Source: a virus
Direction: 5' to 3' (one strand)
Virus record (IMG/VR): IMGVR_UViG_3300045988_175774
Length of the DNA: 46,533 bases
The notes beneath the pieces were generated by a model. It worked only from the letters and a program-made list of their open reading frames with translations, did not search any database and was not told where the DNA came from. The translations under genes and the position numbers were made by a program. This document shows positions 2,520 to 17,929 of the stretch, piece after piece. Each line of letters starts with the position of its first letter. Position 1 is the stretch's first letter.

Positions 2520-3023
2520 TTACCAATTTTGTTGTATTTTAATAAAAGATTTACAGCATTTTGAAGAGTATAACTCTGGATATTTTGTTATATCACAAGC
2601 TTTATCTCTAGCTCCTATCAATTTTCCGCATTTCTTGCAATAAATAGTATATTTATTTATTTTTTCAGGTAATCCCTCGTAAAGCTGACCTTCCGCGATA
2701 GCCTTTGGATTAGCACCAAGTCTTTTCGCGATATCCTGCCAAATCTTATCATGTCCGTGTAATTCACCTGTTGTCCAATAAACAAAAGCGTGAGCTAATT
2801 CGTGTTTTATAGTATCCATAATTTGAGCTTCTGTTCCAAACTGAAGAAAATTTTTAGAGAACTCAATTTTCTTAATGCCGAAACCGTCTTCATATTTTAC
2901 CTGACCAAGAGTTTTAGTTAATCTTCCATTCTCTACAATAGGACAAGTAATGATAAAACCATTTTCTTTTGCTATCTTTTCACAAATTTCATTTACTTGT
3001 TTAATTGTCATTAACTGCATCAC
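2520..3023 (-). CDS. SprT/Wss1-like zinc metalloprotease with a C-terminal zinc ribbon (paralog 2)
   Basis: KHELAHAFVYW, HGHD and YCKKCGKL...CC; collinear similarity with 1997..2503 over the full length. Confidence 0.7.
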   Translation of the reverse strand: MMQLMTIKQVNEICEKIAKENGFIITCPIVENGRLTKTLGQVKYEDGFGIKKIEFSKNFLQFGTEAQIMDTIKHELAHAFVYWTTGELHGHDKIWQDIAKRLGANPKAIAEGQLYEGLPEKINKYTIYCKKCGKLIGARDKACDITKYPELYSSKCCKSFIKIQQNW

Positions 3024-7758: not shown

Positions 7759-8024
7759 GCTATCTACCTCTCTTGTTTTTATTTATTATTTATTTTATGT
7801 ATACATTATATCAAAAGAAAAAATAAAAGTCAACGGCATTTTGCACAAAGTATAATAAAATATTTTGTCTATTTTGACTATTGACAGGTTTAGCATTGTG
7901 CATAATAGAGAAAATTGGCGGATTTTGATATAAAATTTTGTTCATTTTACCTATTGACAGAGATTTTTGTACAAAACGGAGAATTTTGGGATAAAAAATT
8001 TTTTATTTTTGTGCATTTTTTCTC

Positions 8025-8118
8025 TTGACAAAATCGTCAGCGTGTGGTATAATGGATATTTCGGTCGCCTTGACCCAAGGCGACCCGCTATTATACCATA
8101 CTTTCGGGTGCTTGTCAA
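8025..8118. promoter_or_regulatory. element A: face-to-face consensus promoters flanking a GC hairpin
   Basis: Plus side: ttgaca 8025-30, 17-nt spacer, TGgTATAAT 8048-53. Hairpin: ggtcgcc-ttgacccaa-ggcgacc at 8063-8085. Minus side: TTGACA-N17-TGgTATAAT (plus tgtcaa 8113-18, attata 8090-95). Confidence 0.6.
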
Positions 8119-8407
8119 TAGGCAAAATAAACAAAATAAAAAATTTTTTGAGCCTTATTTTTGTTACATTTTCACAAAATTATAGACTGGGACTCTTTGT
8201 GCAACAATACTAAAATTATAAAAATTTTTTGGCTATTTTTTGTAATTTATGTGCATTGACTTTTTTGTTCTCTGGTATTTTTGAATAAAAAACATCCCTC
8301 CAGCAGCGGATTTTTTGTGCAAAAAGTAGAAAAAAAATGCATAAAAAAGGAGGACGGATTTTGTGCAATCCGCCCTCTTGACAAGGTTTATAAGTTACTT
8401 TTTAGTT

Positions 8408-10420: not shown

Positions 10421-10894
10421 CTATAAGAAATTTTTTAATACTTCCATGATATTGTTTACATCAAAACTATTTTTGCCCCACTCTTTTCTATTGCGTTCCT
10501 CATCATCAAAAAGCCATCCCTTACAATCAACGACAGTACTTTTCGGTGTGCCATAGTTTACAATTTTGATTTCGTCCCATTTAATACTAGGTAAGTGTTT
10601 TTCAAGCCATGCAAGTTTTACACTTGTTACCGCTGTATTATAAGAAGCTGACCCGCTTTTACTTAACCAGCTTACAATACCAATTCTATAGCCATTAGCT
10701 TGTAACTTGTGAAGCACTCTTGCGAAAACTGAAAAATTGAAAAGTGGTTTTGCTACTTTGTATGGTGTAGTGTCTTCTTTTTCCAAATATGCTAACCAGT
10801 TTTCCACGCCGTAGAAGTTAGCAAGTGTGCCGTCCATGTCAAAATAAATAGTTTCTTTTGTGCTCATCATTTTTTTAACTGTATTATCCATCAT
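10421..10894 (-). CDS. HAD-superfamily phosphatase, resembling the 5'(3')-deoxyribonucleotidase (NT5C-like) family
   Basis: HAD motif I IYFDMDGTLANF (DxDGT); size about 157 aa. Confidence 0.65.
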   Translation of the reverse strand: MMDNTVKKMMSTKETIYFDMDGTLANFYGVENWLAYLEKEDTTPYKVAKPLFNFSVFARVLHKLQANGYRIGIVSWLSKSGSASYNTAVTSVKLAWLEKHLPSIKWDEIKIVNYGTPKSTVVDCKGWLFDDEERNRKEWGKNSFDVNNIMEVLKNFL

Positions 10895-11331
10895 AATAAT
10901 TACCAGTCCTTCCTTTTTTGATTATCGCAAGTGCCTTGCGACCGACCGCTCATTATGTAAGCTTTGCTTTATTTCTGTTTTAAGTTTAATGTCCTTCGAC
11001 AAGTATATATTACTACATCTTAGCGAAAAAGTCAAATTTATTTTTTATTGTGCAAAGTGATGAAATTTTACATAAAAATCATAGTATTTTTGTTAAAATG
11101 TACAAATGTAGAAAATTAATGCGGATTTAGGCGGATTCTTGTGCATTTTGCTACCTTAAATATTACATATTGTGTTTCTGCGTGTCAAAAAAGGTATGAT
11201 TTTTTATTAAAATTTCGTCACTTTGCACAAGGTGTAGAAAATTTTGATATTATTTTATTAAATTTTGTGCATTTTGTATACCATGTCAAAAAATGGGATT
11301 TTTTTAATTTATTTTTTGTGCAAATTACCTA

Positions 11332-11435
11332 TTGACAAAAAGGTGCTAGATGTGGTATAATAAAATTTCGGGGTGCCCCGACCCCGAACGGACTTTGCCC
11401 TCTTCCATTATAACATACTCGAGCCACCTTGTCAA
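11332..11435. promoter_or_regulatory. element B: face-to-face consensus promoters flanking a GC hairpin
   Basis: Plus side: ttgaca 11332-37 and TGgTATAAT 11356-61. Hairpin: ttcgggg-tgccccga-ccccgaa at 11367-88. Minus side: TTGACA-N17-TATAAT (tgtcaa 11430-35, attata 11407-12). Confidence 0.6.
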
Positions 11436-11503
11436 GAGTTTTTTTCAAAAAAAATGCACAAATTTTGGGATAAAAATTTTGAAAAATTTGTGCATTTTTT
11501 CTC

Positions 11504-11599
11504 TTGACAAAATGTCTCAACTATGTTATAATGGAAGGCTCGCGAGCAGTCAATGCGAGCCGAGCCGGCTATTATACCACATTTTCCGCGACTTGTCAA
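11504..11599. promoter_or_regulatory. element C: face-to-face consensus promoters flanking a GC hairpin
   Basis: Plus side: ttgaca 11504-09, 17-nt spacer, tataat 11527-32. Hairpin: ggctcgc-gagcagtcaat-gcgagcc at 11537-61. Minus side: TTGACA-N17-TGgTATAAT (tgtcaa 11594-99, attata 11571-76). Confidence 0.6.
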
Positions 11600-15122: not shown

Positions 15123-15147
15123 CTTATCACCTCTCTTTTCAAGTATT

Positions 15148-15176
15148 ATTATACTACCTTATTATACCATTGTCAA
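15148..15176 (-). promoter_or_regulatory. consensus promoter TTGACA-N17-TATAAT for the 14844..15122 operon
   Basis: plus attata at 15148-53 and tgtcaa at 15171-76. Confidence 0.55.
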
Positions 15177-15329
15177 GCTTTTATTTACAGTATTTTTATT
15201 TATTTTAATGTATATTTACTCATGTTATTAAGACTAACAGTTAGTTTTAAATACATATTTATATCTTTTTTATAAATGGTAAAATAAAATATAATATAAA
15301 TATTATCATACTATTTTATTTAGTATTAT

Positions 15330-15585
<256 letters not shown>

Positions 15586-16240
15586 CTTAAGCTTAACCTC
15601 TCATTATAGCACCTTTAGCTCATTCTGTCAATAGACATTTTACACAATTTTTTCTTTAAAACTTTGTGCAGATTGCCCATTGACATTTCTTGTCTATTGA
15701 CATTTTGTACAAAAATCAAATTATATTTTTGTATACTTTTACCATTGACAGGGTTTGTCAATAGACATAATGTACAAAATTTTCCATGTATTTTTGTACA
15801 ATTTTACCTATTGACAAGTTCATTTTAGGAAAATATCTTTGTACATTTTTTACAAAAATTTAGCCAAAAATTTGTGCATTTTGCCTATTGACAAGCTTCT
15901 CGGAGCGTTGCGAAAGTATACGCTCCGACGATAGATGGCAAGCTACCAATAGCCAATAAAAATTCTAATCTTCTTGCTTTATTTTAGTTATTTAAAGAAT
16001 TTATTTTATTAGTTTAACTCTTTCTCCTCTTTGCTTAAAATAATGTGTTCAAAACTCTTCTGAACAAAAAGCATATCCTCTTTGGAAAAAGATTTGAAAA
16101 ATTATTTGTTAGGCGGTATCTTGTTGCTTCTTGCTCAAAAGAAATGCTCAAACTACAGACCATACTTAAACATAATGCCGGGGTATATTAAAGGATTAAA
16201 ATTTTTTACTTTTATAAAAAGATAGTGTTCTCCACAATTC

Positions 16241-16400
16241 TCTCTCCAAAAATTTTTTCAAATCTAAAAGTCTAAAAGTCTAAAAATAAAATCAAAAAAC
16301 GAGAATTAAAAATCTCTCCAAAAATTTTTTCAAATCTAAAAGTCTAAAAATAAAATCAAAAAACGAGAATTAAAAATCTCTCCAAAAAATTTTTTTAAAC
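16241..16400. repeat. tandem direct repeat of about 64-72 nt, about 2.3 copies
   Basis: tctctccaaaaattttttcaaatctaaaag(tctaaaag)tctaaaaataaaatcaaaaaacgagaattaaaaa appears twice, followed by a partial third copy. Confidence 0.85.
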
Positions 16401-16484
16401 AAATTAAAATAAAATAAAATAAAAAAGGATTTTAAAAAAATAAAAATATTTCTCATTTTTCTCTTTAAAAAACTACCCGCGATG

Positions 16485-17240
16485 TCAAGCAAGGCTCCGA
16501 AAGGCGTCTAAATTAGATCCATTAGGGATAGCAAAAATTATTTTTTTAAAAATATAATTATTAGATAATTTCATAAATATCTTTTTAACTTCATTAGGAT
16601 CTTGACCAAAAGCTCCGCATCCAAAAGCTCCTAAGATTAGAACATCAACTTTATTTTTCGCCGCAATGTCTAAAATAAAAGAAATTCTTTCTTTTAAAGC
16701 CTTAGTATTTTCTTCATCTGTTATCCCATTACGCTTAGCTTCTTTTTTATTCGGGGCTGCACAAGTGATAATATCACAATTATAAAAATCCTCAAAAAGA
16801 ACATTTGGACTATAAATTGCTCGATTCCAATATAAACCGCGATTTATTAAGTTTTTATTTTCTCCATAAAAATCTTCTCTTTGTCGTTGCAAAATATTAT
16901 AAAGAATAGATTTATGACATAAACTTTCTTCTTGAGTACTACTTCCTTTTAAAAAACCTCCGCCAGGATATTTAAAAGATGCAAAATTAAGTGCGGCAAT
17001 CTTACTATTAGGAAACTCAGATACAGCTTTTTTAATAGCATTAACAGTATCAGTTTCCCATATTTCTAAATAATTAAGATTTTTTTCATTTGTTTTATTT
17101 GTTTTATTTACAATAGAACCTGGTACGAAACCACTATAATATTTAGTCCTTGCATTACACCATGCGATTTTATCTGAATATTCTTTTTCCATTTTATAAA
17201 AATGATTTATGGCTTGAATAGCTCTTTCTTTTTTATTCAT
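16485..17240 (-). CDS. bacterial-type poly(ADP-ribose) glycohydrolase-like macrodomain (DUF2263 / TIGR02452 family)
   Basis: PARG signature GGG-X7-QEE (PGGGFLKGSSTQEES) plus the macrodomain diphosphate loop VLILGAFGCGAFGQDP. Confidence 0.7.
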   Translation of the reverse strand: MNKKERAIQAINHFYKMEKEYSDKIAWCNARTKYYSGFVPGSIVNKTNKTNEKNLNYLEIWETDTVNAIKKAVSEFPNSKIAALNFASFKYPGGGFLKGSSTQEESLCHKSILYNILQRQREDFYGENKNLINRGLYWNRAIYSPNVLFEDFYNCDIITCAAPNKKEAKRNGITDEENTKALKERISFILDIAAKNKVDVLILGAFGCGAFGQDPNEVKKIFMKLSNNYIFKKIIFAIPNGSNLDAFRSLA

Positions 17241-17260
17241 CTATTAACATCCTCGTTTTA

Positions 17261-17470
17261 TTAAAACATCGCGTTTGCCTGTTCATAATATTTTAATTCT
17301 TGAATCCAAGCGATTGGAATCACCATTTCCGCTTTAGCATATCTTTCCATAGCATCCATGATCTCATGTCTCCTAGTATTGATTATTTCTAATCTGAAAG
17401 TTTCACGCGGAACTAATCCTGCAACTGCAACTGTTTTCTTTGTTTCGTTATTTATAGTTATATTACTCAT
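17261..17470 (-). CDS. small hypothetical protein (69 aa)
   Basis: ORF lying between the PARG-like gene and the SLOG-like gene. Confidence 0.45.
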   Translation of the reverse strand: MSNITINNETKKTVAVAGLVPRETFRLEIINTRRHEIMDAMERYAKAEMVIPIAWIQELKYYEQANAMF

Positions 17471-17471
17471 A

Positions 17472-17819
17472 TTATTTTCCTCCTATTTTAATTACTTTAC
17501 CATGCTTTCCATTCATTTTCATTTTCATAATAATTTTTCTAATTATTGCATCTTTTCCGTCATAAAAAAATATACCAAAATCAATATTTTCTACCATTTT
17601 CTGAATTAATTTATCTATGTTGCGATCAAATACATATTCAATAGGAGCACCATTATTTTCTGCCCATATTTTTCCAATAGACTCCGAGAGCTTCTTCTCC
17701 GTATTCCCGCAAACAACAGTAAATAAATAACATTGCGTTTCGCAGATAAAATCTTCCATAGTTGCGGAGACTAGGCGATTATCTGCGAAACCGCGACTTC
17801 CAAGAATACTAATTCTCAT
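17472..17819 (-). CDS. SLOG-superfamily (DUF2493/YpsA-like) nucleotide-binding Rossmann-like protein
   Basis: N-terminal MRISILGSRGF, then ..VVCGN..G.D..IG.WA..NG.P.. spacing, consistent with DUF2493 phage proteins. Confidence 0.5.
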   Translation of the reverse strand: MRISILGSRGFADNRLVSATMEDFICETQCYLFTVVCGNTEKKLSESIGKIWAENNGAPIEYVFDRNIDKLIQKMVENIDFGIFFYDGKDAIIRKIIMKMKMNGKHGKVIKIGGK

Positions 17820-17900
17820 TTCTTTTTCCTCTTGTTTTATTTATAAAATAATTATAACAAAATTTTTTTAAAAAATCCAATTAAAGTGCTTTAATCAAAT

Positions 17901-17929
17901 TTGACAAAAAAATTTTTTTGTGGTATAAT
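17901..17929 (+). promoter_or_regulatory. consensus promoter TTGACA-N17-TGgTATAAT at the start of the plus-strand structural arm
   Basis: ttgaca at 17901-06 and tataat at 17924-29. Confidence 0.65.

Follow-up and report, generated by a model that had tools for sequence, protein, structure and literature searches.

Iyer et al. 2022 (PMC9503650) proposed that phage proteins with SLOG, Macro, NADAR and Nudix domains counter host signals derived from ADP-ribose (ADPr), and noted that large phages often code for SLOG domains. In this work, we have used computational approaches to analyse a locus bearing genes of two of these kinds in the IMG/VR virus record IMGVR_UViG_3300045988_175774, a stretch of 46,533 nucleotides whose full length is called the window here. 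The locus is a leftward operon coding for a 115-aa SLOG-like protein, a 69-aa ORFan and a 251-aa PARG. We propose, with a probability of roughly 0.55, that it holds two independent accessory genes, predicted to be expressed early from one sigma-70-type operon, one coding for a competent PARG and the other for a degenerate SLOG protein.

The closest described relatives of the phage PARG are the enzymes of Thermomonospora curvata (3SIG), Deinococcus radiodurans (DRB0099, 5ZDB) and Streptomyces coelicolor (SCO0909), which belong to the same Pfam/TIGRFAM family and have in common with it the GGG-X6-8-QEE signature, the diphosphate loop and the macrodomain fold (TM scores of 0.75–0.82). The phage protein differs from them in that it is only 26–30% identical to the solved PARGs, lies in a phage operon predicted to be early and has no adjoining ligase or PNK genes. 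Bacterial-type PARGs strip ADPr from the 2'-OH of RNA and from 5'-phosphate ends, and the D. radiodurans enzyme (DrPARG) belongs to a ligase-PARG-PNK operon; in the same work, ADPr linked to the 2'-OH of RNA was removed by PARG-type enzymes only, and guanosine-linked RNA ADPr by NADARs only (PMC11833690). The concept of a phage-borne reversal of host ADP-ribosylation is shared with the phage orphan antitoxin-like ADP-ribosylhydrolases that neutralise DarT (PMC11825919) and with the DarG macrodomains, although the phage PARG is of a different clade, being PARG-type and neither a DarG-type macrodomain nor a NADAR; activity of PARG-type enzymes on DarT products is not established in the literature searched.

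As for the SLOG-like protein, the viral YAcAr/DUF2493 SLOGs (mycobacteriophage D29 gp61-like, Gordonia phage GMA3, Ralstonia phage RSL2, Marseillevirus and pandoraviruses) have the same fold and detectable homology; like it, such SLOGs occur in large phages as small proteins coded on their own (Iyer et al. 2022, PMC9503650). The 115-aa protein differs from these in that it is devoid of the three canonical loops and concentrates its conservation in NGAP, D80 and GKHG. With the SLOG domain of ThsA (7UXS) it shares 14% identity, but it has no SIR2 or other effector domain and its ligand loops are not conserved. The anti-Thoeris sponges Tad1 and Tad2 are likewise small early phage proteins, but they are unrelated to it in sequence or fold (no Pfam/PHROG match; its structural neighbours are SLOG proteins). 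Tad1-8, TadIII-1 and TadIV-1 are sponges or direct binders, none of them described as SLOG- or PARG-type in the anti-Thoeris literature searched.

Results

The PARG protein

The sequence of the 251-aa protein identifies it as a genuine bacterial-type PARG. Its scores are far over the cut-offs of both PF10021 (3.6e-26, 92.7 bits; cut-off 23.5) and TIGR02452 (7.2e-53, 179.8 bits; cut-off 50), and a phmmer search of the PDB with the protein as query returned the PARGs of D. radiodurans (1e-21) and T. curvata (1e-19) and no other matches; with the family profile the values were 1e-40 and 7e-36, respectively. The GGG-X7-QEE signature and the GAFGCGAFG loop, from which a sequence-only reading of this DNA had recognised the enzyme, are both intact. 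Residues Q103, E104 and E105 are invariant across 20 homologues, G204, A205, G207, G209 and F211 of the loop are invariant in the family alignment, and the phage protein keeps 45 of the 45 columns that do not vary among 20 homologues. The AlphaFold2 (AF2) model (predicted local distance difference test, pLDDT, of 90) can be superposed on the PARGs of T. curvata and D. radiodurans, with Foldseek matches to 3sih/3sig at E~5e-17 and template-modelling (TM) scores of 0.81–0.82, and to DrPARG at 0.72–0.76. Taken together, the profile scores, the intact motifs, the invariant columns and the superposition of the model indicate that the phage enzyme is very probably active.

PARG genes are present in 20 of 50,697 GenBank phage records, from Lak megaphages, Bacillus phage G and other huge phages, and in at least 275 copies in IMG/VR, mostly on large gut contigs. 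The nearest cellular homologues, with 45–47% identity, come from Lachnospiraceae and Erysipelotrichaceae. A homologue with 48% identity (P0014; L031, 2772-5777) is coded directly after a 722-aa Pnkp-like fusion of AAA_33 kinase, Metallophos and RNA_lig_T4_1 domains, and the gene order in this bacterial or large contig echoes the D. radiodurans operon. With iterated searches, 7 of 25 viral PARG clusters left after dereplication had an RNA ligase or PNK-type kinase gene at up to 5 kb from PARG, compared with 3 of 69 bacterial clusters, and such viral neighbours match the enzymology and the operon pattern reported in PMC11833690. A PARG-Pnkp linkage as a general rule was considered and rejected, as it did not prove general in a search with the single L031 protein and extends to the above fraction of viral clusters with the iterated searches. 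In two of the 25 viral clusters, the genes within 5 kb of PARG include one for a nicotinamidase-like isochorismatase. In another SPbeta-like phage (L062, 1497-7547), PARG is ~100 kb away from the SLOG-like gene of that phage, and its flanking genes code for proteins of 494 aa, 241 aa (a lambda-phosphatase-like metallophosphatase) and 347 aa (nucleotidyltransferase-like, with a helix-turn-helix, HTH), labels that were read from the sequences and not from profile scans.

The SLOG-like protein

The assignment of the 115-aa protein to the SLOG/DUF2493 family, also made by the sequence-only reading, is weak by Pfam alone: the match to PF10686 (YAcAr; E=0.0012, 19 bits) falls under the gathering cut-off of 28.2, and this profile matches just 6 of the 62 members of the SLOG-like family at E≤0.01. 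It is borne out by profile-profile comparison and by structural matches. In an hhalign comparison between the SLOG-like alignment and that of three canonical N-terminal YAcAr domains, with no sequences common to both, the probability was 98.0% (E=1.7e-13), and the structural matches of the protein in BFVD are DUF2493 proteins with probability 1.00. The predicted structure has the SLOG Rossmannoid fold, and its top matches are SLOG proteins, including DprA and ShosA (DprA-like). A search of PDB sequences with the SLOG-like profile gave noise only, and tblastn with the protein against GenBank phages gave no matches; an exhaustive HMMER search yielded ~95 representative homologues, mostly standalone and of 100–115 aa. 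On these matches, the 115-aa protein is a degenerate SLOG-fold member of the YAcAr/DUF2493 family, and we place it in the viral clade.

The ligand crevice of a Rossmannoid domain is built from the loops past its strands. All three canonical elements of this kind are lost in the phage protein, where the GGxxGxD loop past strand 2 (GGARGAD) is replaced by GNTEKKLSES, the DW..YGK.AG..RN insert past strand 3 is deleted, and the GxxGT loop past strand 4 (DGKSKGT) reads DGKDAII. When conservation in the 62-sequence alignment was mapped on the secondary structure, the loops following the strands proved the least conserved (top-residue frequency 0.18–0.30, gap fraction 0.11–0.35), and the loops preceding the strands the most conserved (0.67–0.90, no gaps), with LF at 32-33, NGAP at 56-59, D80 and GKHG at 104-107. 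We infer that the usual ligand crevice and the conserved residues of the family are on opposite faces of the domain. The loss of the ligand loops and this inverted conservation argue against a classical SLOG pocket, and weaken the earlier suggestion that a standalone SLOG could serve the phage as a signal sponge.

Natural fusions join a canonical YAcAr domain (PF10686, 6.8e-16) to the N-terminus of a degenerate SLOG in P0126, P0128 and L020 (3620-4345). In P0167 the degenerate SLOG is followed by a DUF488-N3a-like C-terminal region, so named by its resemblance to a neighbour in L019 that matches PF22751. In L019 and L021, a weak SLOG/DprA-like gene lies directly upstream of the SLOG-like gene and a DUF488-N3a gene lies downstream. 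A distant homologue in L030 (1788-5059) stands amid an RNA ligase (PF09414 and a PHA02142 oligonucleotide-binding fold), an AAA_33 PNK-like kinase and a third neighbour, an open reading frame (ORF) whose N-terminus, read directly and not by profile scan, looks like a metallophosphatase, a T4-like RNA-repair set.

Linkage between the PARG and SLOG-like genes

The sequence-only reading had joined both genes in one counter-defence module. Our results indicate that PARG and the SLOG-like gene are not a co-evolved or conserved module, and that PARG is a dispensable presence/absence cassette, strain-variable among near-identical phages. The 134.6-kb relative L001, 95.7% identical over the adjacent arm, is without the cassette (Table 1) but keeps the SLOG-like gene, the 67-aa counterpart of the ORFan and ~50 nt of homology to the 3' end of PARG and to its terminator hairpin, a remnant with which a deletion of PARG is consistent. 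The PARG ORF is frameshifted and split in two in a contig that was seen both as L016 and as L035.

The adjacency is confined to this lineage (L009-L018, L033-L035). No PARG was found within 4 kb in 14 distant SLOG-like loci outside the lineage, and no SLOG or YAcAr gene within 5 kb in 157 other PARG loci (77 viral, 80 bacterial); among 80 viral and 80 bacterial PARG loci, the three with a SLOG-like/YAcAr gene at up to 5 kb all belong to this lineage. On contig UViG_3300045988_085326, from another SPbeta-like phage, the two genes are ~100 kb apart. The adjacency or fusion conserved over divergent genomes, which characterises the SLOG-Macro neighbourhood of Iyer et al. 2022, is not observed for this pair. 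The SLOG-like gene itself holds a fixed promoter-proximal position across the phage group: in 13 of the 14 distant loci, it is the first gene of the leftward unit or close to it, and faces homologues of the 386-aa and 399-aa genes. The related SLOG-like loci were searched with 12 closer sequences.

Organisation of the locus

The three minus-strand ORFs are present as previously read. Judged from the sequence, they are a single operon with one sigma-70-type promoter candidate: the sole convincing promoter lies upstream of the 115-aa gene, the gaps between genes are of 1 and 20 nt, and a terminator-like hairpin ends the unit. The earlier statement that the trio is under its own promoters thus stands for a promoter candidate upstream of the trio, which is single and not several. 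This candidate was read directly from the sequence and is absent from the consensus scan list, its -35 matching 3 of 6 positions.

Table 1. Features of the PARG/SLOG-like locus in the window
Feature	Position	Strand	Basis and remarks
SLOG-like gene, 115 aa (MRISILGSRGF...)	17472-17819	-	ORF; first in the leftward operon
69-aa ORFan	17261-17470	-	ORF; start 1 nt past the SLOG-like stop codon
PARG gene, 251 aa (PARG_cat_microb / TIGR02452)	16485-17240	-	ORF and profiles; 20 nt beyond the 69-aa ORF
PARG catalytic signature, G93-G-G-FLKGSST-Q103-E104-E105 (GGG-X7-QEE)	16926-16964	-	sequence; aligns to DrPARG GGGFLGGAQAQEE
Diphosphate-binding loop, G204-AFGCGAF-G212	16605-16631	-	aligns to DrPARG GAWGCGVF
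PARG cassette	16356-17261		blastn break-points; 906 bp here, ~103 bp in L001
Candidate operon promoter	17851-17880	-	-35-like TTGGAT 17875-17880, 18-nt spacer, extended -10 TGtTATAAT, hexamer 17851-17856
Ribosome-binding site, AAGAGGAAAAAG	ahead of the SLOG-like ATG at 17819	-	read from the sequence
Terminator-like hairpin and T-run	16476-16493	-	consensus scan; overlaps the PARG stop codon
Divergent promoter, perfect TTGACA-17-TATAAT	17901-17929	+	consensus scan; precedes the 386-aa phrog_5767 gene

The trio lies, as the sequence-only reading had placed it, where the leftward operon and the packaging and structural arm diverge. This arm is headed by the 386-aa phrog_5767 gene, whose product is labelled 'sigma factor', and continues with genes for a YonG_N-domain protein, the large terminase, the portal, virion proteins and a 2843-aa tape-measure protein. 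The homologues of the 69-aa protein are all at least 81% identical and all from the same phage lineage, where it stays with the SLOG-like gene; it has no Pfam or NCBIfam match, no distant homologues and no counterpart in the distant SLOG-like loci.

The window has a G+C content of ~30% and covers about a third of a genome of ~135 kb. Its architecture is SPbeta-like and its close relatives are contigs of 131–141 kb from gut metagenomes, and the best explanation for its source is an SPbeta-like phage of ~135 kb from gut Bacillota. Within the window, tRNA and Rfam scans gave no matches, PADLOC gave none either (including for the 69-aa protein and for ThsA-like or sponge families), and no other NAD or ADPr genes were found. 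The search of GenBank phage DNA had as its sole match a partial one, to a fecal contig, covering structural genes.

Other features of the window and its relatives

Downstream of PARG there is an ORF-poor spacer of 1.36 kb (15123-16484), where the relatives likewise have no called genes. A 64-bp unit is present in it as 2.5 tandem copies (16241-16426), and repeats with a period of 65 bp occupy 15626-15895. The spacer also contains (TAT)n and (TTA)n microsatellites, a hairpin close to 15905-15931 (CGGAGCG-N13-CGCTCCG) and, on the minus strand, two perfect sigma-70 promoters; the one at 15631-15603 is followed by ~480 ORF-less nt, and the other is at 15176-15148. The motif TGTCAATRGNNAA, complement of the extended -35-like CCTATTGACA, was observed in 16 copies against 2.9 expected, clustered in both orientations in the intergenic leftward arm (15626-15893, 7874-8125, 11325-11509 and 6419); this array may be an operator/early-promoter array or an origin.

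Elsewhere on the minus strand of the window, tandem SprT-like metalloprotease genes (1997-2503 and 2520-3023) adjoin a gene for a 373-aa AAA/nSTAND3-like ATPase (826-1947), and a 157-aa protein (10421-10894) has a borderline match to NT5C (5'-deoxynucleotidase; 24.9 bits, cut-off 24.8). In the 140-kb relative L015 (1-1936), the 580-aa terminase gene is replaced by ORFs of 114, 215 (with a faint LAGLIDADG_3 match) and 400 aa, which suggests the insertion of a homing endonuclease or an intron. In the IMG/VR contig L024 (1315-3572), the homologues of the 386-aa and 399-aa genes are split into several short ORFs, possibly pseudogenes, assembly errors or cases of recoding.

Discussion

We propose that the locus brings together under one promoter two early genes with separate functions. 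The PARG would cleave the O-glycosidic bond that joins the riboses (1''-2') in poly(ADP-ribose) and, by analogy with SCO0909 and DRB0099, would also remove ADPr from the 2'-OH of RNA and from the 5'-phosphate ends of RNA and DNA. Its most likely use in the phage would be to strip the adducts with which host ADP-ribosyltransferase (ART) toxins or defences mark proteins or nucleic acids, the latter being those of the phage or related to translation. It would then be a dispensable, strain-variable counter-defence or repair gene, and an ADPr-directed counter-defence role is plausible. The 115-aa protein would most likely act through protein contacts and not as a classical nucleotide sponge; one possible partner is a second SLOG domain, after the model of the natural fusions between YAcAr and degenerate SLOG domains.

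Several points weigh against this explanation. SLOG and Macro domains co-occur in DNA viruses above expectation (PMC9503650), and the operon adjacency in most members of the lineage could reflect co-function. The window contains no RNA ligase, PNK or ART gene, so the RNA-repair context of PARG in other phages is absent here. Finally, the opposite face on which the conserved SLOG residues are placed rests on the order of secondary structure elements in the AF2 model, that is, on topology and not on coordinates.

Could both proteins act together against a signal? The SLOG-like protein might sequester an NAD-derived signal of the TIR/Thoeris type (gcADPR or a related molecule) while PARG degrades it or other ADPr messengers. 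A joint action of viral SLOG, Macro and NADAR proteins against ADPr-derived signals has been proposed in general terms (PMC9503650), the two genes share an operon, no SLOG-type or macro-type protein has been reported in the anti-Thoeris literature searched, and in chemical terms 2'cADPR has, in its 1''-2' glycosidic bond, the poly(ADP-ribose) linkage that PARG cuts (see also the discussion in PMC11833690). However, type I Thoeris signals with the 1''-3' isomer, whose bond is not of this type (PMC13243611), PADLOC found no ThsA-like match, and this explanation is at odds with the loss of the canonical ligand loops and the poor conservation of the crevice side, with the lack of a conserved linkage, and with close relatives that delete or frameshift PARG yet retain the SLOG-like gene. 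We consider such a joint anti-signalling module unlikely. The same loss of PARG in close relatives fits an accessory and not a core regulatory role, and bears also on the idea that PARG serves an ADP-ribosylation cycle of the phage itself, either as a toggle that reverses or tunes the marks of a phage ART coded elsewhere in the ~135-kb genome or by recycling ADPr and NAD, with no host defence as its target. ADPr toggles have been proposed in surveys of jumbo phages (PMC7824862), the nicotinamidase-like isochorismatase neighbours seen in viral clusters speak in its favour, and the roughly two thirds of the genome beyond the window leave room for a phage ART; with no ART or NAD-salvage gene found in the 46.5 kb analysed, we regard a self-directed cycle as equally unlikely.

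The third explanation takes the 115-aa protein out of ADPr biology altogether, as a DprA-like factor related to single-stranded DNA or recombination, or as an early regulator, its proximity to PARG being accidental. The presence of DprA and ShosA among its top structural matches points in this direction, as does its syntenic place (13 of 14 loci) next to the divergent region of early/late control, and phage SLOG fusions to helicase, HTH and nuclease domains have been published (PMC9503650), ICP1 HelB being a further case. Yet the protein has neither the C-terminal domain of DprA nor a SAM domain and has a length of only 115 aa, and the fusions and neighbours of its family are a second SLOG, DUF488-N3a and RNA-repair genes, with no recombination genes among them. 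We find this explanation improbable, if a little less so than the two preceding ones.

A bolder version of the protein-contact idea would make the SLOG subfamily, its nucleotide pocket lost, a new kind of protein-level immune antagonist, which through its conserved NGAP/D80/GKHG surface pairs with host effectors that bear SLOG domains (ThsA, ShosA/DprA-like), or caps their ligand-induced assemblies, with PARG adding in some strains the removal of PAR-type (1''-2') linkages, possibly those of 2'cADPR among them. We hold this to be very unlikely; if true, it would provide the first SLOG-mimic inhibitor and the first enzymatic destroyer of a TIR-derived signal.

What does the locus mean for the biology of these phages? 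Both kinds of gene are already known in phages, counter-measures of the SLOG/Macro type against ADPr have already been proposed in the literature, and neither gene alters current concepts. The more unusual element of the locus is the degenerate SLOG subfamily, which offers a tractable candidate for a non-canonical SLOG function. As to PARG, it was not until 2025 that bacterial-type enzymes were shown to reverse toxic RNA ADP-ribosylation, and to our knowledge no phage PARG has been tested so far. The variable cassette of this lineage, found intact, frameshifted or deleted, is a ready comparison for the use of PARG against ADP-ribosyltransferase-based immunity.

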